The position numbers and the translations under genes were made by a program. A DNA stretch of 64,000 bases, taken from positions 704,001 through 768,000 of the forward strand of contig CP170459.1 in NCBI GenBank assembly GCA_047947115.1, in the 5' to 3' direction. The notes under the pieces were generated by a model, which was not told the origin of the DNA, ran no database searches, and saw only the letters and a program-made list of their open reading frames with translations. Below, piece by piece: positions 2,087 to 12,347 of the stretch. Origin of the DNA: Verrucomicrobiota bacterium. Lineage in GTDB: Bacteria; Verrucomicrobiota; Verrucomicrobiia; Limisphaerales; AAA164-E04. Each line of letters opens with the position of its first letter. Position 1 is the first letter of the stretch.

Positions 2087-3772
2087 ATGAAAAAAGTCGT
2101 CATCGGCATTTTGGGTTCCGTCATGGACAAAGGAGCCGGCCCGGGACGTTGGGACCTGTGGCGCCCAACCGTTTCCCTCTTCCAGCATGAGGATCTACTG
2201 ATCGACCGATTGAATCTCATCCGGGAACCGCGCTGTAGAGCATTGGCCAAACAAGTCAGCGCAGACATCCGCCAGGCTTCACCCGAGACGGAAGTTACCC
2301 AACATGACGGTATCTTTCGCGACCCCTAGGATTTTGAGGAAGTTTTCGAGACGCTCCATGATTTCGCCACCCGATATCCGTTCGATACGGATCGGGAGGA
2401 ATACTACATCCACATCACCACCGGATCCCATGTCCAACAGATCTGCCTGTTCCTATTGACCGAATCAGGCTACCTTCCCGCACGCCTGATTCAGACATCT
2501 CCACCAAAGCGCCGCAACTCGGGAGAATTAGGGAGATACCACATCATCGATTTGGATCTGTCCCGCTATGATCGCATCGCCGATCGGTTTCAGGAAGAAA
2601 AGGACGAAGCCCTGGATTTCCTCAAATCAGGCATCGCCACACGGAACGTGGCCTACAACCAACTGATTGAATCGATGGAAACCGTCTCGGTGCGATCGCA
2701 AGCGCCGATGCTGCTGATGGGACCAACCGGAGCAGGTAAATCACATCTTGCCCGAAAAATCTACGAACTGAAAAAAGCGCGCAGGCAATTGAGCGGACCA
2801 TTCGTGGAAGTCAATTGCGCCACCCTGAGGGGCGAATCCGCCATGAGCAACCTGTTCGGCCATGTGCGTGGTGCTTTCACCGGGGCTCAGAACGCCCGTA
2901 AGGGGTGCCTGATGTCCGCGCACGAAGGCATGCTGTTTCTCGATGAGATCGGCGAATTGGGATTGGACGAGCAGGCAATGCTACTCCGGGCTATCGAAGA
3001 GAAACGCTTTTTCCCGTTGGGATCGGACAGCGAAGTGGAAAGCAACTTCCAACTCATCGCTGGCACCAACCGCGAATTATCTGAGGCTGTAAGAAAAGGA
3101 CTGTTTCGAGAGGATCTGTTTGCGCGCATCAACCTTTGGACCTTTCACCTGCCCGGCCTGAAAGACCGCCGGGAGGACTTGGAGCCCAACCTTGAGTTTG
3201 AACTCACGCGCTACGCCAGCCAAACCGGTCAACACGTCTCCATGAACAAGGAAGCACGCGACACCTTCCTTTCATTCGCTTTGAGCCCGGAAGCAATATG
3301 GACAGGAAACTTTCGCGATCTCAACGCAGCCGTTTCCCGCATGGCCACCCTGGCAGGAGGCAGACGCATCACGCGTGCAGACGTCAAGGAAGAAACGGCA
3401 AGATTGAAGACACTTTGGTCCCCCCATACCAATCGTGCAACATCCAATCCGGACCAACCGCATCAAAACACCCTGCCGGAACACATCTCCCAAAAACTAG
3501 ACCTGTTCGACAAAGCCCAACTGGCAACCGTTCTTCAAGTATGCCACGAAGCCCCGACCATGGCCGAAGCCGGACGCCGCCTGTTCTCCGTCAGCCGCCA
3601 ACAACTCAAATCCCCCAACGACTCAGATCGCCTGAGAAAATACCTCCTAAAGTTCGGACTCACCTGGCGAGACGTCAGAAAAACAACACAAATTAACCCG
3701 CCACCGGAAGAACAAGCTCCATCTCCCCCCCACTTCGAATCTCATACCTTTCAGCCTGCTATCAGGCCGTAA
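2087..3772 (+). pseudogene. rtcR: RtcR sigma54-dependent activator (CARF-like N-terminus + AAA+), interrupted by in-frame TAG at 2327-2329
   Basis: ORFs 2087-2329 and 2456-3772 share a frame; read-through gives RDP*DFEEVFETLHDFA...IHITTGSHVQQICLFLLTE, matching RtcR DPWDFEEV; Walker A GPTGAGKS, GAFTGA loop, LFLDEIGE. Confidence 0.9.
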
Positions 3773-3874: not shown

Positions 3875-3919
3875 CAAACATAGAAACCCTCCACCCGGCC
3901 TTTTTCTCAGAAATGAGCA

Positions 3920-3935
3920 TGGCATACATCAAGCT
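3920..3935 (+). promoter_or_regulatory. Putative sigma54 promoter of the hcp-like gene
   Basis: TGGCATACATCAAGCT has exact GG-N10-GC spacing, about 40 bp upstream of ATG 3974. Confidence 0.45.
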
Positions 3936-3973
3936 TTATCAGTTTTGTTGCAAACAACAGAAATCAAACAACT

Positions 3974-4528
3974 ATGAAGCACAACAAACTCACTCAACGG
4001 ATCGCCGGACTTCTGCTGGCCATTATCACCATCACCCAAATCAACGCGGCCGCCTATATCAAGTTCGACGGTATTGACGGCGAGGCCAAATCAGAAGGCC
4101 ATGAGGGATGGATCGAAATCCTGTCCTTCAACCAGGGCATCCACAAACCCAAACAAGGCGCATCGGGTTCCACCCGCAGACGCTCCGCTGCCGTATTTGG
4201 CGATTTGACGGTAGCCAAGGAACTCGACAAATCTTCTCCCAAACTGGCCGAAGCCGTTGCCACCGGACGGGTCATACCCCGTGTGACACTGGATGTGACT
4301 GTCGCCACCGAACGTGGAGAAATGACTTATTACCGCTACGAGCTGACCAACGTCCTCGTCACCAGCTACCAAGTCAGCATGGACAATCCTGAATTGCTGC
4401 CCATGGACAGCTTCAGTCTGAATTTCGAAAAAATCAAAGTGACTTACACCGGGTTGGAATTCGGAACCAAAGGGGAATCCGGGGACCTCGTCGAGTATTC
4501 CTGGAAAGTCGAAGAAGGAGAAAATTAA
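3974..4528 (+). CDS. hcp: Hcp (T6SS tube, Hcp1 family) protein with N-terminal Sec signal peptide; orphan
   Basis: AYIKFDGIDGE..HEGWIEILSF, DLTVAKELDKSSPKL, YELTNVLVTSY, SFSLNFEKIKVTY are Hcp1-type motifs; preceded by MKHNKLTQRIAGLLLAIITITQINA. Confidence 0.88.
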   Translation: MKHNKLTQRIAGLLLAIITITQINAAAYIKFDGIDGEAKSEGHEGWIEILSFNQGIHKPKQGASGSTRRRSAAVFGDLTVAKELDKSSPKLAEAVATGRVIPRVTLDVTVATERGEMTYYRYELTNVLVTSYQVSMDNPELLPMDSFSLNFEKIKVTYTGLEFGTKGESGDLVEYSWKVEEGEN

Positions 4529-4556
4529 TTTTTCAACGCTCATAACAAGTTCCTTT

Positions 4557-4589
4557 AAAAAGGACGCCGGATTTTCCGGCGTCCTTTTT
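4557..4589 (+). terminator. Intrinsic terminator (symmetric A/T tails)
   Basis: AAAAAGGACGCCGG-ATTTT-CCGGCGTCCTTTTT. Confidence 0.9.
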
Positions 4590-4636
4590 GTGTTTTCCCA
4601 TTGCAATCATTCAAACATCCGGATTTCATAGATGCC

Positions 4637-7420
4637 ATGCGCGAAGAGAATCCAGCTCCAAACAAGAAGCGGTACCGTCCCACCATGGGACCACGCCTGC
4701 ATATATTACTGTATGTGGTCTTCGGCCTTTTTGCGGTTCTGGGAGCCAATTCCGCTTACCTGAGTGCCATCACCTTTCTCGAATGGTGGAACGAGGAACT
4801 CTACCAAAACTATTTTTACCAATACATGTTCCTGGCCCATTTGGTCCTTGGAATCATCCTGGTGCTGCCATTCCTTGCTTTCGCTTTTGCCCACCTGAAA
4901 CTTGCCTACAACCGGAAAAACCGAAGGGCCGTCAAGGTAGGTTACGGATTGCTGGTTATTTCCTTGATCCTCTTGATATCAGGGTTTGCGTTGATGCGGG
5001 TGGAAGGGTTTGAAATTCGAAACCCAAACACTCGGCTCTGGCTTTATTGGTCACATGTCATTACGCCTCTACTTGCCATCTGGCTTTACGTGTTGCATCG
5101 ACTTGCCGGCCCGCGCATCCAGTGGAAAATCGGAGCCGGTTGGGCTGCCGCTGTCGGCGTGGCAGTCGTCGCCATGGCAGGTCTCCACCAACAAGACCCC
5201 CGTAATTGGAATGTCGAAGGGCCCAAGGAGGGAGAAAAATACTTTGAACCTTCTCTGGCTCGCACAGCCACAGGCAATTTCATCCCTGCCAAAACCCTGA
5301 TGATGGATGAATACTGCAAGAGATGCCATGAACACGCCTACAACGACTGGTTCCACAGCTCCCATCATTTCAGCTCCTTCAACAACGAGCCCTACCTTTT
5401 CTCAATCAAGGAACTGAGAGACCTCCTGATGGAACGTGACGGCGATGTCAAAGCCTCACGCTGGTGTGCAGGCTGCCACGATGTCGTGCCATTCCTGAGC
5501 GGTGCATTCGATGATCCAAATTTTGACATGCGCAACCATCCAACGGTCAATGCCGGGGTGACCTGCACCGTCTGCCACTCCATCACCCACATCAACAGCA
5601 CCAAAGGCAATGCGGCCTATACCATCGAAGAACCGATTCACTACCCGTTTGCTTTCAGCGACAATCCATTCCTACAGAAAGTCAACGAGCTGATGGTCAA
5701 AGCGAAACCCGCATTCCACAATAAAACATTCCTCAAACCATTACATAAAAAAGCCGAATACTGCTCGGTCTGCCACAAAGTCAGTCTCCCGGGCGAACTC
5801 ACCGGATACAAAGACTGGCTGCGAGGACAAAACCACTACGACAACTTTCTGTTAAGCGGTGTCTCAGGCAGCAACGCACGGGCTTTTTACTACCCTCCCA
5901 AAGCTGAACCCAACTGCAACGACTGCCACATGAAACTGGAAACGTCAGCCGATTTCGGGGCCCGGTTCTTCGATGAATCCGGTGAACTGAAAATCCATGA
6001 CCACCAATTTCCGTCTTCCAACACTGCGCTGCCTCACCTGAGAAAGGCACCTGAGTGGGTCAATGAAGAACAGGAAAAGTTCCACAAAGGCAACCTGCGG
6101 GTAGACCTTTTTGGTGTGAAGGAAGGAGGAACAGTCGACTCACCTCTGACCGCCCCGATCAGGCCTGAAATTCCTGCATTGAAACCCGGGCAGACTTACC
6201 TGTTTGAAGTGGTGATCCGCACCCTGAAACTGGGACACATCTTCACTCAAGGAACCGTTGACTCCAATCAAGTCTGGTTGGAGGTCAAAGTGGAGGACGA
6301 TGAAAAGGTTCTGGGCCATAGCGGAAGTGTGGACGAAGAACACCGAGTCGACCCCTGGTCCCACTTCGTGAACGTCTACATGCTGGACAAAAACGGCAAC
6401 CGTATCGACCGTCGTAATGCCGCCGATATTTTCACGCCGCTGTACAACAATCAGATCCCTCCGGGAGCGGCCGCTGTCGTGCATTATCAGTTTAAAGTCC
6501 CGGAAAACCAGCAGCAATCCCTCAAGGTGCGGGTTCGGTTGAATTACCGCAAATTCGACACCACTTACATGCAGCATGTATATGGACAGGATTACTCAAA
6601 TGACTTGCCTATAACTATCATGGCCGAGGACTTGGTCGAATTCCCCGTTCAAGCAGGAATGACCGTCACGCAAAACGCCACCGTTCCCGTCCATCCCGAA
6701 AACTTTCCAATGTGGCAACGTTGGAATGACTACGGAATCGGTCTCCTCCTCAAAGGCTCGGCCGGCAGCGACAAAGGCGAACTCAAACAAGCCGCCGCCG
6801 CCTTCACACAGGTGGAAGCCCTCGCACGCCCGGAAGGTCCGGTCAATATGGCTCGAGTGTTCTTCAAAGAAGGCCGCGTCGACGATGCTGCCCGCGCTTT
6901 ACAACGCGCCGCCACATTCGATCCCCCTGCCCCACGCTGGACCGTGGCCTGGTTCACCGGACAAGTCCACGCTCAAAACGGTGAACTCGACGAAGCCATC
7001 CAAAATTACCGAAGCATCCTCGAGGACCGCTACGTCGAACTGGATGAACGCGGGTTCGATTTCAGCAAGGATTACGTCGTGATCAACGAACTCGGACAAA
7101 CCTACTACCTCCGATCCAAACTCGAACGCGGACAACCCGAACGCGAAAAGCAATTCCTGGAACTCGCCATCCAACAATTTGAAAACACTTTGAAACTGGA
7201 TTCCGAAAACCAGACAGCCCACTACAACCTGTCCCTGATCCACGCCGAACTCGGCAACGAAGAAAAAGCCGCCATCCACCGCGATCTGCACGAAAAATAC
7301 CGCTTCGACGACAATGCCCGCGACCGCGCCGTCGCCATTGCACGAGCCAAAGATCCGGCCGCTCGGCACGCCTCTCAGGGAATCGTCATCTATGATCTGC
7401 AAAGAACGGAGAAAGAATAG
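4637..7420 (+). CDS. Membrane-anchored pentaheme c-type cytochrome with C-terminal TPR repeats
   Basis: About 5 N-terminal TM helices; CxxCH x5 (CKRCH, CAGCH, CTVCH, CSVCH, CNDCH); TPR-like helices (AIQQFENTLKLDSENQTAHYNLSLIH); start could be 4601, 4637 or later. Confidence 0.8.
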   Translation: MREENPAPNKKRYRPTMGPRLHILLYVVFGLFAVLGANSAYLSAITFLEWWNEELYQNYFYQYMFLAHLVLGIILVLPFLAFAFAHLKLAYNRKNRRAVKVGYGLLVISLILLISGFALMRVEGFEIRNPNTRLWLYWSHVITPLLAIWLYVLHRLAGPRIQWKIGAGWAAAVGVAVVAMAGLHQQDPRNWNVEGPKEGEKYFEPSLARTATGNFIPAKTLMMDEYCKRCHEHAYNDWFHSSHHFSSFNNEPYLFSIKELRDLLMERDGDVKASRWCAGCHDVVPFLSGAFDDPNFDMRNHPTVNAGVTCTVCHSITHINSTKGNAAYTIEEPIHYPFAFSDNPFLQKVNELMVKAKPAFHNKTFLKPLHKKAEYCSVCHKVSLPGELTGYKDWLRGQNHYDNFLLSGVSGSNARAFYYPPKAEPNCNDCHMKLETSADFGARFFDESGELKIHDHQFPSSNTALPHLRKAPEWVNEEQEKFHKGNLRVDLFGVKEGGTVDSPLTAPIRPEIPALKPGQTYLFEVVIRTLKLGHIFTQGTVDSNQVWLEVKVEDDEKVLGHSGSVDEEHRVDPWSHFVNVYMLDKNGNRIDRRNAADIFTPLYNNQIPPGAAAVVHYQFKVPENQQQSLKVRVRLNYRKFDTTYMQHVYGQDYSNDLPITIMAEDLVEFPVQAGMTVTQNATVPVHPENFPMWQRWNDYGIGLLLKGSAGSDKGELKQAAAAFTQVEALARPEGPVNMARVFFKEGRVDDAARALQRAATFDPPAPRWTVAWFTGQVHAQNGELDEAIQNYRSILEDRYVELDERGFDFSKDYVVINELGQTYYLRSKLERGQPEREKQFLELAIQQFENTLKLDSENQTAHYNLSLIHAELGNEEKAAIHRDLHEKYRFDDNARDRAVAIARAKDPAARHASQGIVIYDLQRTEKE

Positions 7421-7773: not shown

Positions 7774-8502
7774 ATGAAATCTGATTCCATTTTGTCGCCG
7801 CTTTCTTTCAAAAACCAGATCATCGCACTCTCTGCATTGTTCATCCTTTCCACCGCATTCGCCCAGGATCTCTCCAGCGAGAAAAGCGTCAAGCCCGGCG
7901 TCAACGACAACTTCCTGGCGGCCGACCTCGACGTCAGTCAATGGGTGGAACGTTTCGAAACCGAAGGTCGGGAAGTTTACGCCCTCCGCAACAAAGTCGT
8001 TGAAACCATCGACATCAAACCCGGCCAGAGTGTCGCCGACATCGGAGCCGGCACCGGCATCTACACCGGATTGTTCGCGGACGCGGTCGGCAAAGAAGGA
8101 ACCGCCTATGCCGTGGACATCGTCCCCGTCTTCCTTTCCAACATCCTCAACCGCGCCAAGGAAACCGGACGCAACAATATCAAAACCGTCCTCGGCACCG
8201 CCAAATCCACCAACCTCCCGGAAAACTCCGTGGACAAGGTCTTCATCTGCGACACCTACCACCACTTTGAATTTCCCCGCAACACCCTGGCTTCCCTCCA
8301 CAAAGCCCTGCGAAAAGGAGGCGAAATCATCCTGGTCGATTTCAAACGCGTCGAAGGTGAAAGCTCCGACTGGATCATGAACCACGTCCGTGCCGGTGAA
8401 GAAGTCTTCTCAGCAGAAGTCGAATCCGCCGGCTTCGAAAAAGTCGCCTCCTACGACCTCCTCAAAGACAACTACATGATCCGATTCCGCAAAAAAGATT
8501 AA
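7774..8502 (+). CDS. Class I SAM-dependent methyltransferase with signal peptide
   Basis: VADIGAGTG motif I, YAVDI motif II, CDTYHHF; N-terminal IIALSALFILSTAFA-QD. Confidence 0.85.
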   Translation: MKSDSILSPLSFKNQIIALSALFILSTAFAQDLSSEKSVKPGVNDNFLAADLDVSQWVERFETEGREVYALRNKVVETIDIKPGQSVADIGAGTGIYTGLFADAVGKEGTAYAVDIVPVFLSNILNRAKETGRNNIKTVLGTAKSTNLPENSVDKVFICDTYHHFEFPRNTLASLHKALRKGGEIILVDFKRVEGESSDWIMNHVRAGEEVFSAEVESAGFEKVASYDLLKDNYMIRFRKKD

Positions 8503-8511
8503 GGTGTTCAG

Positions 8512-8925
8512 TCAGGATTTCCATGGGTTTAGGACATCCACACCATCAGGAAAATCAGATTCGTTTCTGGTGGCGATGACAAGCTGGAATTCGAGAGCTG
8601 TTGCCGCAATAAGACTGTCCATCAGGTTTAACTTTCGGCCTTTATTTTGATGATAAGCGTAGAAAGCACCCCATCGGTTCATGACAGATCCCGACACAGG
8701 AAATAACCTTCCCTCAGTCCACGTTTCGATACGTCTATACCAATTCTCAATCTGCGAACGGCGTTTTGAACGATTCAGCAACTGGATACCCTTGACGAGT
8801 TCCCCCATTGTCAGCACGCTCACACCTAGTTCTGAGTCATTCCGTCGAAACCATTCCATCACTCCCTGATGAGGATTTGGTCGACACAGTTCACTCAGCA
8901 CATTGGTGTCCACGAGATATGTCAT
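8512..8925 (-). CDS. vapC: VapC/PIN-domain toxin
   Basis: YLVDTNVLSE, MGEL, MDSLIAATA, ATRNESDF acidic PIN residues. Confidence 0.9.
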   Translation of the reverse strand: MTYLVDTNVLSELCRPNPHQGVMEWFRRNDSELGVSVLTMGELVKGIQLLNRSKRRSQIENWYRRIETWTEGRLFPVSGSVMNRWGAFYAYHQNKGRKLNLMDSLIAATALEFQLVIATRNESDFPDGVDVLNPWKS

Positions 8926-8933
8926 GCGCAGTC

Positions 8934-9176
8934 CTACTGGAGCAGGAAATCTCTTGCCGTATCTTCGCTTCGATCAACACCCCACCCTTTGACTGGACAC
9001 TCCTGCAATATGTCAGCCAACGTTTCTCTTGGAGCCATCTGCTGAAATTTTTCCATGGAAAGAACTACAACAGTGGGTTGACCATGCCGGGTTATCATTT
9101 GAGGCCCATCCTCAAGGGCAGAATCCACCAACTTGCTCAATTTATTCTTAGCATCTTGAAGCGACCACGATGTCAT
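8934..9176 (-). CDS. Phd/YefM family antitoxin
   Basis: WSLQDAKNKLSKLVDSALEDGPQMITRHGQPTVVVLS; directly upstream of the PIN toxin. Confidence 0.9.
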   Translation of the reverse strand: MTSWSLQDAKNKLSKLVDSALEDGPQMITRHGQPTVVVLSMEKFQQMAPRETLADILQECPVKGWGVDRSEDTARDFLLQ

Positions 9177-9339: not shown

Positions 9340-9753
9340 ATGACCGTACACTCAAAACCAAAGAAAACAGATCTTCCGGACCTCTCACCCAGCCAACTCG
9401 AGATCATGCAGGAAATCTGGGAACGTGGCGAAACCACCGTCAGCGAAGTGTGGGAAAGTCTTTTATCCCAACGTCAGGTGGCAAGGAACACGATTCTGAC
9501 CCTCATGGACCGACTCACCCAAAAAGGGTGGCTGAAACGTCGCATAGATGCGGGTGTCCACTATTACTCCGCCACCACCGCACGCAAAAAGACCCTGGGC
9601 AACATGGTCAATCAATTGATCGAAAAAGCCTTTGCCGGTTCAAGCGAAGACCTGGTGCTCACACTGCTTGAAAGCCGAGGCCTGACCAAAGCCGAATCAG
9701 ACCGTATTCAAACCCTCATCCAACAAGCAGCAAAGAAAGGAAACAAAAAATGA
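9340..9753 (+). CDS. BlaI/MecI/CopY family repressor
   Basis: LSPSQLEIMQEIWERGETTVSEV...ARNTILTLMDRLTQKGWL winged helix; overlaps the M56 gene start (ATGA/TGA). Confidence 0.92.
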   Translation: MTVHSKPKKTDLPDLSPSQLEIMQEIWERGETTVSEVWESLLSQRQVARNTILTLMDRLTQKGWLKRRIDAGVHYYSATTARKKTLGNMVNQLIEKAFAGSSEDLVLTLLESRGLTKAESDRIQTLIQQAAKKGNKK

Positions 9754-12347
9754 ACGTTCCCGCCTTTTTCGACGGTTTTCTCATCTGGATGGCCCTGTCT
9801 TCGGTCATAATACTGGCTGCCGGAATCATCGCACTCCTGCTGTTTCGTAAAAGCGCCGCATGGCGGCACCAGATTTGGCTGAACATGTTGATCGGAATCT
9901 GGCTGCTCCCTACCGCCACCTGGATCGTTCAGGAAATGAACTGGAACTGGACGCCAAGCAACAAAAAACACAACACTGTTTTCGATTCCCGTGCTGCATC
10001 AACACCTGCTACTCCAACCATCGAACCTGCTCTGGACAAAAACGAAACATCCCAACCGGGTACCCATTTCTCAACAACGACTCAACTTTCAACTCCACCC
10101 ACTGTCCCTATCCCGTCGAACCAGGACAAGAAAACCCTGAGAGAATGGATCCATCCGGCGAAAGCAGCGCTTTTCTGGACTTGGTTATCGGGAACCTTGT
10201 TCCTTTGCTCAAGATGGATGATCGGCTGGTGGCGACTGAGACAGATCATCCGCCATTCCTCTCCCATCAACCAACGGACAACCACGGAAATCCTGAAACG
10301 TACGGTCGATAACCTCGACATGAAATGTTGTCCCCGAATTCATACATCCCAGCAAATCACCACCCCCATGGTGATCGGGACATGGAATCCCTCCATTCTT
10401 TTGCCTTTCCCCCAACTGCAGGAAATCAGCCCCCCTGAACTTGAACAAATCCTGATCCACGAGTGCGCCCATATTCAACGCCGCGATCACTGGGTCTGGT
10501 TACTCCAACGCATCGGACGCACGATCTGTTGGATCAATCCCCTCTACCACTGGATGCACGCCGAACTGAGCCGTGCCCGCGAAGAACTCTGCGACAACCA
10601 TGTTCTCCAACAATGGACCGGACTCGACTACGCCCAAACCCTGTCCAAAGTCTCGAACAGATGGCATCAACAGAACCCCATGATCACCGGCCTCGCCATC
10701 GGCTTCCGAAAACACCAACTCGTCCACCGCGTCGAAACCCTACTCGACCAAACCGTCGATCATCGCAGCTCACTGAACCCGATTTCCCAATCAGCCTTCT
10801 TCATCCTATTCTCCGCCCTCATACTGAGCTGCGCCCTTGTCACATCCGGACTCACTCAGGAACAAACAAAAAATTCACTCGAGGATACGCCACCAGATTC
10901 AGCTATCGAAACATCCAAGCTCCGACCCTACCCGAATGACATCAAGGCGCAGAAGTATTTGATGTCCGACGGAAAAGACATCCACGAAGTTGAATACTAC
11001 CCTTGGGTGGAAGAAAGCGATTACCAACGGGTACCTAAGTCAATGTTTGATAGTTACGACTTAAAACCATTTGTGTGGAATTCACGAAAAACAAGTCGAA
11101 TAACTTTATCTGCCAACTTCGCTCACTTCTGCGGACTAACACAAAAGCAAGCAGAAGAGGTAAACCAAGTTATTGCTCAAACTCTAAATGAGTTTGATTT
11201 GCTGAAAGCAAGTCAGATGGAATTCGTTAGCGAAGTGGACTGGGACGACGATTATCCCCACTCAGGAATAAAGAAAACGGTGACTTTTAAATGGGATCCA
11301 ATTGAAGATCAACACATTGATGTCTTCCTTGAATTGCGGAAAATCTTGGAGCGTGAAGTCGAGAAGGTTTTAGGTTCAGATCGGACAAAATTGCTATTAC
11401 AAGCTAGACAGCCTGCATCTGTTCTTTCAGGAATGACTGAAGGGATGCTATCGAATCCCCCCAGACAACAAATTTTTCCAAAGTATTACGTTTTCTGCTT
11501 AGAAAAGTATGGAACTGGTTGGATTGTGAGCATGAAGAGGGGAAGCATAGCCAACTACGGCGGACCGCTACCTGAAGAATTGGATCAATATGTCCCTGAA
11601 CGAATGAAAGAGACGCTTTCAAAATGGAGGGAATTCGCCAGAGCAAATCCACCGACAGATGAAGAAATCAAAAACTTGAGCGTTCAAATTTCAATTGAGC
11701 CAAACGAGCAATATTCCCGACATAGTGAACAGCATTTGGTTCTCTGGAGTCCTGAAAATCCACATTTCGATATTCCAAAAAAACTTTTAGCCGAACTCTC
11801 AGTCCCAGGCCTATCCATTTACAATGGCATCTCAAACACTGCAGCCACCATGCTTGGCCTGTCTGACGAGGGCAATCGTTTACTGACGAAAACCTATCAG
11901 GAATTTGACACTCGATTCAGAATCCTCCAAAAACAGCATATGCACCCCCTCTCCAATGAATCATACAATCTCCAAATCAATGCATTTCCAAACGAAGCCA
12001 ACAAACTAAAAGAGGTGTGGCTAACATTCTTACTCAAGACCTTTGGGGAGACTCAGGCGCACACAATAGACAAAGCGCTGCGAACAGTTCCGGATGAATA
12101 TGAATACATGCAAGGTTTTCCACCTTCTATCCTTTCATTTATGAGCTTTCCTTCACGCATTTGGTTAGAATCAGGAACCGATTCCATTAAATTCTATGTC
12201 TTGGACGAACGAACGAGTTTTAAGAAAATCGAATGGACGAAATCAGACGGACAGCAGGGAGTGACGGTTGCACAGAATAATTACATTAGTGATCACCAAG
12301 AGCGAATCCTCCGAAGTCTGTTCAACCTTGATTTTGATTCCGAATAA
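9750..12347 (+). CDS. M56 (BlaR1-like) metallopeptidase signal transducer with an uncharacterised duplicated extracytoplasmic domain
   Basis: TM helices, HECAH zincin motif, WINPL, AREELCD; no beta-lactam-binding domain recognised in the C-terminal 480 aa. Confidence 0.88.
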   Translation: MNVPAFFDGFLIWMALSSVIILAAGIIALLLFRKSAAWRHQIWLNMLIGIWLLPTATWIVQEMNWNWTPSNKKHNTVFDSRAASTPATPTIEPALDKNETSQPGTHFSTTTQLSTPPTVPIPSNQDKKTLREWIHPAKAALFWTWLSGTLFLCSRWMIGWWRLRQIIRHSSPINQRTTTEILKRTVDNLDMKCCPRIHTSQQITTPMVIGTWNPSILLPFPQLQEISPPELEQILIHECAHIQRRDHWVWLLQRIGRTICWINPLYHWMHAELSRAREELCDNHVLQQWTGLDYAQTLSKVSNRWHQQNPMITGLAIGFRKHQLVHRVETLLDQTVDHRSSLNPISQSAFFILFSALILSCALVTSGLTQEQTKNSLEDTPPDSAIETSKLRPYPNDIKAQKYLMSDGKDIHEVEYYPWVEESDYQRVPKSMFDSYDLKPFVWNSRKTSRITLSANFAHFCGLTQKQAEEVNQVIAQTLNEFDLLKASQMEFVSEVDWDDDYPHSGIKKTVTFKWDPIEDQHIDVFLELRKILEREVEKVLGSDRTKLLLQARQPASVLSGMTEGMLSNPPRQQIFPKYYVFCLEKYGTGWIVSMKRGSIANYGGPLPEELDQYVPERMKETLSKWREFARANPPTDEEIKNLSVQISIEPNEQYSRHSEQHLVLWSPENPHFDIPKKLLAELSVPGLSIYNGISNTAATMLGLSDEGNRLLTKTYQEFDTRFRILQKQHMHPLSNESYNLQINAFPNEANKLKEVWLTFLLKTFGETQAHTIDKALRTVPDEYEYMQGFPPSILSFMSFPSRIWLESGTDSIKFYVLDERTSFKKIEWTKSDGQQGVTVAQNNYISDHQERILRSLFNLDFDSE

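Follow-up and report, generated by a model that had tools for sequence, protein, structure and literature searches.

A lone Hcp-family protein with a predicted Sec signal peptide in a Verrucomicrobiota genome with no detected T6SS sheath gene

Introduction

Hcp (TssD), the tube protein of type VI secretion systems (T6SS), binds effectors in its lumen. Phage tails and eCIS assemble in the cytoplasm and exit the cell by lysis. The Hcp hexamer is an 80 Å ring with a 40 Å channel; native Hcp1 from EAEC is reported not to assemble into tubes in vitro, the association between rings being weak (KD 7.2 μM; PMC3925092). Orphan hcp/vgrG islands carry VgrG, PAAR or effectors and rely on a T6SS elsewhere in the genome (PMC10433429). 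Substrates of the T9SS combine a signal peptide with a conserved C-terminal domain (PMC12618676).

Here we analyse an hcp gene in a window of 64,000 nucleotides (the whole stretch of DNA under study) from a Verrucomicrobiota genome, G000; G, L and P numbers denote comparison genomes, loci and proteins. With T6SS Hcp proteins (A. baumannii Hcp1, 4W64; P. aeruginosa Hcp1, 1Y12; E. tarda EvpC, 3EAA) the window Hcp shares family, fold, core motifs and loop length. Unlike them, it has a predicted signal peptide and its own predicted promoter and terminator, the sheath, baseplate and spike genes searched for in its genome were not found, and its relatives pair with tagged subunits or form six-domain chains. 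Like the genes of orphan hcp/vgrG islands (PMC10433429), it lies away from a main T6SS cluster, but G000 has no VgrG, TssB, TssC or TssF match and the protein carries a leader. Phage and eCIS tail-tube proteins have the tube fold in common with it (VIA Z 8-10) but are far less similar to it than Hcp is, and neither a phage-type sheath nor the baseplate V domain was found in G000. The logic of T9SS substrates recurs in the partners encoded at related loci, a leader and a small predicted C-terminal beta domain being present on many large exported proteins; the partner tag, however, lies outside Pfam, the window Hcp itself is tagless, and the role of the tag as a sorting signal is one that we infer. 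The literature searched, with supplements and subscription journals outside its scope, contained no description of a signal-peptide Hcp. What is new here is a lone, separately promoted Hcp form with RNA evidence, together with an order-wide count of such forms against TssC.

Results

The hcp open reading frame (3974-4528, + strand) encodes 184 amino acids, and its N-terminus reads MKHNKLTQR-IAGLLLAIITIT-QINA up to the predicted cleavage site and AAYIKFDGIDGE beyond it. The first 25 residues (3974..4048, +) form a predicted Sec/SPI signal peptide, with cleavage predicted after Ala25 or Ala27. The n-region is basic, with three K/R, the h-region spans about 12 residues, and the leader ends in the small residues I-N-A; the best 9-residue hydropathy is 3.12, and neither Cys nor twin Arg is present (sequence and hydropathy rule). 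The features of a Sec/SPI leader, namely n/h/c regions and small residues at the cleavage site without a lipobox, are present. Alternatively, the leader could stay uncleaved and anchor a ring to the inner membrane, on that membrane's outer side, and many distant homologues do have a long hydrophobic N-terminus followed by a spacer. In the window Hcp, however, the short h-region ends in small residues and is joined directly to the first strand, and we regard such an anchor as very improbable.

The mature part (4049..4528, +) has a predicted Hcp/TssD fold. PF05638 matches residues 28-158 over the whole family model with 128.5 bits (cut-off 23.5), and TIGR03344 scores 76.7 bits (cut-off 58.9). 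There is no cysteine (leader-bearing Hcp proteins average 0.75 cysteines, versus 2.5 in the others compared), and the overhang loop is full-length, its 25 residues being the median of leaderless Hcp. The predicted structure (pLDDT 85.6) is modelled as an Hcp beta-barrel with one helix, and the best matches in structure searches were all Hcp structures (Foldseek against 4w64, TM 0.82, E 1.5e-13; VIA against 3v4h, Z 20.1, rmsd 1.2, 128 aligned); the Hcp-effector complexes 9qpe and 9vnd were among the VIA matches. By family profile and structural model, window 3974-4528 encodes a true member of the Hcp family. ATG 3974 is the sole in-frame ATG, GTG or TTG between the upstream stop and position 4120, so that no ordinary start would yield a leaderless Hcp. 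The preliminary description of this DNA had proposed both an Hcp-family sequence behind a 25-aa leader and the lack of an internal start, and both proposals stand.

We compared leaders among the 13 nearest non-self homologues, taken from a list of 120 proteins of which 32 were fetched. The full leader is found in 12 of the 13 (63-87% identity), and in the remaining one the annotated start falls inside the h-region. Between the G000 and G007 leaders there are 13 amino-acid replacements and 6 synonymous changes, without any indel and with hydrophobicity retained; the comparison with G001 is likewise indel-free, with the hydrophobic core retained. The next-nearest relatives (about 55-61% identity) are mostly of about 160 aa and begin M-A-A-Y-I-K-F, so the leader joins exactly at the position of their start Met. 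Two of these leaderless loci, L019 and L020, are complete T6SS clusters by gene content (labels judged by eye). The possibility raised in the preliminary description, that homologues would lack the extension and lie in T6SS loci, failed to hold for the nearest homologues, as did every other refuting condition given there that could be checked. One may still ask whether hcp is a leftover or misannotated cytoplasmic T6SS tube gene with an accidental leader, given that the nearest leaderless relatives include genes of complete T6SS loci and that the genome is 95.8% complete. We find this barely credible, because a leaderless start is lacking, the leader is conserved, RNA contigs span the leader codons in six of eight runs and leader-bearing relatives number hundreds.

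G000 is one contig of 6.08 Mb (95.84% complete), and a genome-wide profile search found a single Hcp. The preliminary description had seen no T6SS gene in the window, and the observation extends to the whole genome for the set searched, which comprised TssB, TssC, TssF and two VgrG domains. TssB and TssC gave no match genome-wide, with an E. coli control detected, and the same was true of TssF (PF05947) and of the VgrG domains PF04717 and PF05954, whose controls were also detected. Neither the phage-type sheath PF04984 nor the baseplate V domain (PF04717), tested as a sign of an eCIS or phage tail, matched in G000, although the controls did. No VgrG, PAAR or effector gene stands beside hcp, the neighbours being rtcR and a cytochrome c-TPR protein. 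With a leader present, and with TssB, TssC, TssF and VgrG not found, the window Hcp is not a T6SS component by the tests applied.

Several features of the neighbourhood deserve mention in their own right. Window 4637-7420, after hcp, encodes a membrane-bound cytochrome c554-like/TPR protein, as is also the case in G001, L135 and L138; a methyltransferase with a hydrophobic leader (7774-8502), a PIN/Phd toxin-antitoxin pair (8512-9176) and genes for a BlaI-like repressor and an M56 peptidase (9340-12347) follow. A methyltransferase dedicated to Hcp was considered and rejected: the one in the window is 3.2 kb away, and an upstream neighbour family, which we take to be spermidine-synthase-like, recurs in 5 genomes among 75 loci and is absent at the window locus. 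On the other side of hcp, rtcR (2087-3772) contains an in-frame TAG at 2327-2329 that breaks the gene, and in G000 rtcB and rtcR are separated by an IS4-family transposase (448-1713). In G001 and G007 rtcR is open (534 and 541 aa) and the IS is absent. We also rejected RtcR as an activator of hcp: across the genus rtcR keeps its upstream place, yet it is directed towards rtcBA, a PIN gene intervenes in G001 and the G000 copy is interrupted, and the arrangement was therefore treated as synteny.

Upstream of hcp lies a predicted sigma54-type -24/-12 site, TGGCATACATCAAGCT (3920-3935, +), with GG at 3921-22, GC at 3933-34 and a predicted transcription start at about 3946; its -12 element is AAGC, not TTGC. 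The GG-N10-GC pattern by which the site had originally been recognized is common when taken alone (0.44 per 100 nt per strand), but TGGCATACATCAAGCT fits TGGCA-N8-GC[AT], which is rare (0.004 per 100 nt per strand). The site is found at an equal distance from hcp in G001 and G007, and in G001 it is kept even though a PIN gene has been inserted upstream. It is also kept in 5/5 metagenome loci of the subclade, which are not independent (L134 is 100% identical to the G000 locus, and L136 and L137 match G001), and the full TGGCAC-N5-TTGC form occurs in L158, a relative with 49% identity. Just 5′ of the -24 element, the block TTCTCA..A.TGA (3904..3916, +) has invariant columns in 6 aligned upstream regions and is possibly an element of the promoter or of a regulator. 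rpoN is present in G000, and the scan for such sites also picks up a gene that we take to be P-II (GlnB/K-like). P-II genes are usual sigma54 targets. Only 6 of 75 short leader-Hcp genes have a sigma54-like site, which is thus not general to the family.

Downstream, the strong terminator noted in the preliminary description corresponds to an intrinsic-terminator-like hairpin (4556-4590, +) of 16 pairs (-26 kcal/mol, z = -6.25), with a hairpin at the matching place in L134, L135, L137 and L138. Parts of the stretch were present in 20 runs from 11 studies (19 of them RNA), eight of which were compared with the gene; these data are assembled contigs of runs selected for containing the gene, so that their ends and depths are weak hints, and gaps in the cover of neighbouring genes were given no weight. 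RNA contigs covered hcp in 8/8 runs. In six runs their starts fell within 3947-3985, in the other two at 4018, with none starting 5′ of 3947, and they ended at 4535-4579 in five of the eight, at 4443 in one and beyond the hairpin in two; in the six runs with contigs from 3985 or earlier, leader codons were included. In run X1 the hcp contig had a depth of 686, versus 4-8 on near-identical neighbouring contigs (a weak hint). It is likely that hcp is transcribed alone from the predicted sigma54 promoter, although the two runs that continue past the hairpin count against this.

To compare the distribution of leader-bearing Hcp with that of T6SS, we classed leaders by a hydropathy and start-codon rule, with which miscalls were seen by eye. 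In a sample of the order, Hcp was present in 81 of 301 genomes and TssC in 20. Loci were fetched for 80 of the 81 Hcp genomes (G163, in two fragments, two further matches and G253:C56 were left out), and contained 122 leader-bearing and 22 leaderless ORFs. Leader-bearing Hcp occurred in 60 of these 80 genomes, and 58 of the 60 had no TssC; in the two genomes with both, the leader genes are on other contigs. Conversely, of the 18 genomes that have Hcp together with TssC, 17 carry a leaderless Hcp. Four ORFs of TssC-negative genomes were called 'leaderless'; three of these calls were wrong (two long N-terminal domains and an RHS fusion), and the remaining one, G140, stands as a genuine exception. 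A phylum sample had Hcp in 21/301 and TssC in 15/301 genomes, with the leader form in 7/7 other Hcp-positive, TssC-negative genomes. Among 79 metagenome loci, many of them short, a T6SS marker lay in the locus for 0/29 leader-class versus 30/52 leaderless-class ORFs, several of the marker-free 'leaderless' ORFs being visibly leader-bearing miscalls. We omitted a test statistic, since related genomes are not independent. The preliminary description had called for a comparison of leader-bearing Hcp with T6SS, and the leader form indeed occurs almost only away from T6SS genes. Of the repurposing that it had proposed, export independent of a T6SS is well supported by this comparison, because the leader is conserved and the leader form keeps away from T6SS genes in this manner; the ring, nanotube, chaperone and decoy roles that it offered are weighed below.

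The gene is patchy, being present in 4/22 genomes of the family, and is therefore not essential. Leader-bearing Hcp is carried by named archaea (L018, P0122), so an outer membrane is not required. In a planctomycete sample Hcp was found in 70/331 genomes, with no clean six-domain gene there for inspection, and a search for a longer Hcp form returned only 3 proteins. Some other forms were also seen. L022-L024, L070, L165 and L174 have leaderless Hcp with no nearby T6SS gene, and three of these are Actinomycetota (Acidimicrobiia) records. RHS-like proteins ending in an Hcp domain (L107:676-2466, L108:1386-3014) occur in genomes without a TssC match, and in L073, L074, P0244 and P0269 an N-terminal L-x-PP-x-P-x-x-TM-x-(T/S)LD segment precedes Hcp. 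In a quick, unrooted tree (157 columns, 182 rows) several clades mix leader-bearing forms with leaderless T6SS forms, and both kinds occur in the clade of the window Hcp (SH-aLRT 98, 49 rows). Such sequence relationships suggest that the leader form and the leaderless form have switched repeatedly.

Most leader-Hcp loci encode more than a single short Hcp. In 46 of 73 such loci a short Hcp is followed by an extended Hcp, and the reverse order was never found; an Hcp with a C-terminal tag is likewise encoded in 46 of the 73, and in 13 more a tagged non-Hcp gene is adjacent on the same strand, so that a tagged protein, fused or adjacent, is encoded in 59/73. No tag is present at 13/73 loci, of which five lie at the end of a contig. 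The true lone hcp genes include those of G000, G001 and G018, with no tagged gene within 400 nt, and G007 has a convergent tagged gene only. In G000 a profile search for a degenerate second Hcp came back empty, the two non-Hcp partner families had no homologue (best E 0.2 and 0.69), and the tagged neighbour from G007 gave weak matches only. As judged from gene arrangement across these loci, a two-gene design with a tagged partner is widespread, and the window hcp represents its solitary version.

The tag is a C-terminal domain of about 75 residues that ends in F-(F/Y)-R-V and is sometimes preceded by TSP3, Ig or LamG modules. It is modelled as a small beta domain; the structure search with the fused model reported the Hcp part alone, the tag fold being without a match. 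No Pfam family matched the tag, which maps to unnamed Verrucomicrobiota clusters. An iterated profile found the tag at the end of 118 of 33,045 ORF tails in G000, versus 1 of 3,050 mid-protein segments; as the profile was built from fused partners, 45/49 fused matches are circular. Its carriers in G000 are mostly large (up to 6,779 aa) and have leaders, and these sequence features suggest that the tag is the sorting signal of an unnamed export route. The SprA profile PF14349 had 0 matches in G000, in a search in which no control was detected. Secretin matches in G000 number ten, at eight loci, none of them linked to hcp. A sigma54 regulon of tagged proteins was considered and left unused, 5 of 32 listed intergenic sites preceding tagged genes, without a null. 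The overhang loop has medians of 24 and 22 and is shortened more often in fused partners. Six metagenome loci (L168, L178, L206, L207, L210 and L212) have archaeal-looking pairs of short and then extended Hcp, with another tail, a W-W-containing repeat, in the five complete partners; presumably this is the repeat known from Nitrosopumilus surface proteins. Other arrangements include longer proteins in which SFFD(V/I)F motifs recur N-terminal to the Hcp domain (P0122, P0123, P0147, P0158), and a separate leader-Hcp clade (L077, L081, L083, L086, L087, L089, L092, L097, L101, L102, L105 and L106) whose hcp genes follow a gene for a conserved exported protein; this protein is of unknown family and bears the F-(F/Y)-R-V tag at its C-terminus.

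These loci bear on whether the window Hcp might form a soluble, untethered ring in the periplasm, with cargo in its 40 Å lumen, either chaperoning proteins that the cell itself exports or trapping incoming effectors or phage parts. Its own gene has neither tag nor partner, effector complexes are among its structure matches and the patchy distribution would fit a role in conflict. Nevertheless, a tagged subunit or partner is the rule at related loci, leader-bearing Hcp is present in archaea without a periplasm, and no conserved cargo-like or immunity-like neighbour was seen among 901 neighbouring ORFs at 75 loci; we consider a free periplasmic ring unlikely.

Further evidence on the working unit came from a profile search of 50%-identity representatives, which gave 13,172 matches. 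The best 150 and three long matches comprise 152 distinct proteins; as the profile had leader columns and sums domain scores, it favours leader-bearing and six-domain matches, and the shares that follow are not population frequencies. In this set a hydrophobic leader is present in 102/124 single-domain proteins, and exactly six copies of the Hcp domain make up 22 of the 28 multi-domain proteins (P0124-P0136, P0138, P0145, P0153, P0166, P0169, P0193, P0228, P0229 and P0266). Among the others, P0121 has seven tandem domains, and another five, in which four or five were counted, seem truncated. Pfam confirmed six Hcp domains in 15/15 chains tested. The domains are spaced by a median of 173 aa, which gives linkers of about 20 residues; the chains are flanked by dockerin, Ig, PKD, Calx-beta or Planc_extracel modules, and many of the tandem-Hcp polypeptides have the Planctomycete extracellular leader. 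Six linked domains match the number of subunits in the Hcp hexamer, which lends indirect support to the ring as the working unit. Eight chains measured are 31-40% identical to the window Hcp and, at this distance, may serve another purpose, which counts against the reading preferred below.

A more extended assembly would be a long nanotube without a sheath, in which a surface seed ring, made of tagged subunits or of a six-domain chain, would be extended into a hollow filament by polymerization of the short subunit. The invariable gene order (46/46 pairs) resembles that of a major subunit and a minor one, the window Hcp has a full-length overhang loop whereas fused partners more often have a shortened one, and the contig depth in run X1 is a weak hint in the same direction. 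A free long tube is made doubtful, however, by the failure of native EAEC Hcp1 to form tubes in vitro and by the weak affinity between its rings (PMC3925092), and a seed gene is absent from G000. We judge this assembly quite unlikely for the window Hcp.

Discussion

The reading that we prefer is that the window Hcp is exported by Sec and forms a six-subunit ring outside the cytoplasm, as a tethered building block of the envelope or surface. Export together with ring formation, whatever the job of the ring, we consider highly probable; for the complete reading, tether included, we see about an even chance. Cleavage after Ala25 would leave A-A-Y-I-K-F, the N-terminus of leaderless relatives after Met clipping, and six subunits would then close a ring of Hcp dimensions (80/40 Å). 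In most relatives a second, tagged subunit or a tagged partner would join or seed the ring and keep it surface-bound, either singly or in a short stack, and the ring would bind or display some ligand. The surface tether is borrowed from these relatives, as the window copy has no tagged partner; in G000 a tether, if any, would be encoded elsewhere and have no detectable Hcp domain. No outer-membrane route for the window Hcp was identified.

On a broader scale, we tentatively propose that the T6SS tube protein may have been turned more than once, in bacteria and in archaea, into a new class of Sec-exported surface structure, with a major Hcp subunit on a tagged or single-chain seed ring giving a sheath-free, hollow ring stack or nanotube. 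The exported form would be commoner than the T6SS form in the order sampled, and certain T6SS tubes may themselves derive from it by re-recruitment. This proposal is possible but somewhat doubtful.

Hcp is taken as a hallmark of T6SS, and databases name the leader-bearing proteins 'type VI secretion system tube protein'. In about three quarters (58/80) of the Hcp genomes examined in the order, however, the leader form is present with no sheath gene, and Hcp counts thus overstate T6SS, a concern for counts in genomes and metatranscriptomes alike. The partner tag points to an unnamed sorting route that would have more than 100 substrates in G000, and natural single-chain hexamers would be ready-made ring scaffolds. 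If the ring is indeed built outside the cytoplasm, free-living Verrucomicrobiota, Planctomycetota and archaea would possess an envelope or surface structure that has not yet been described.
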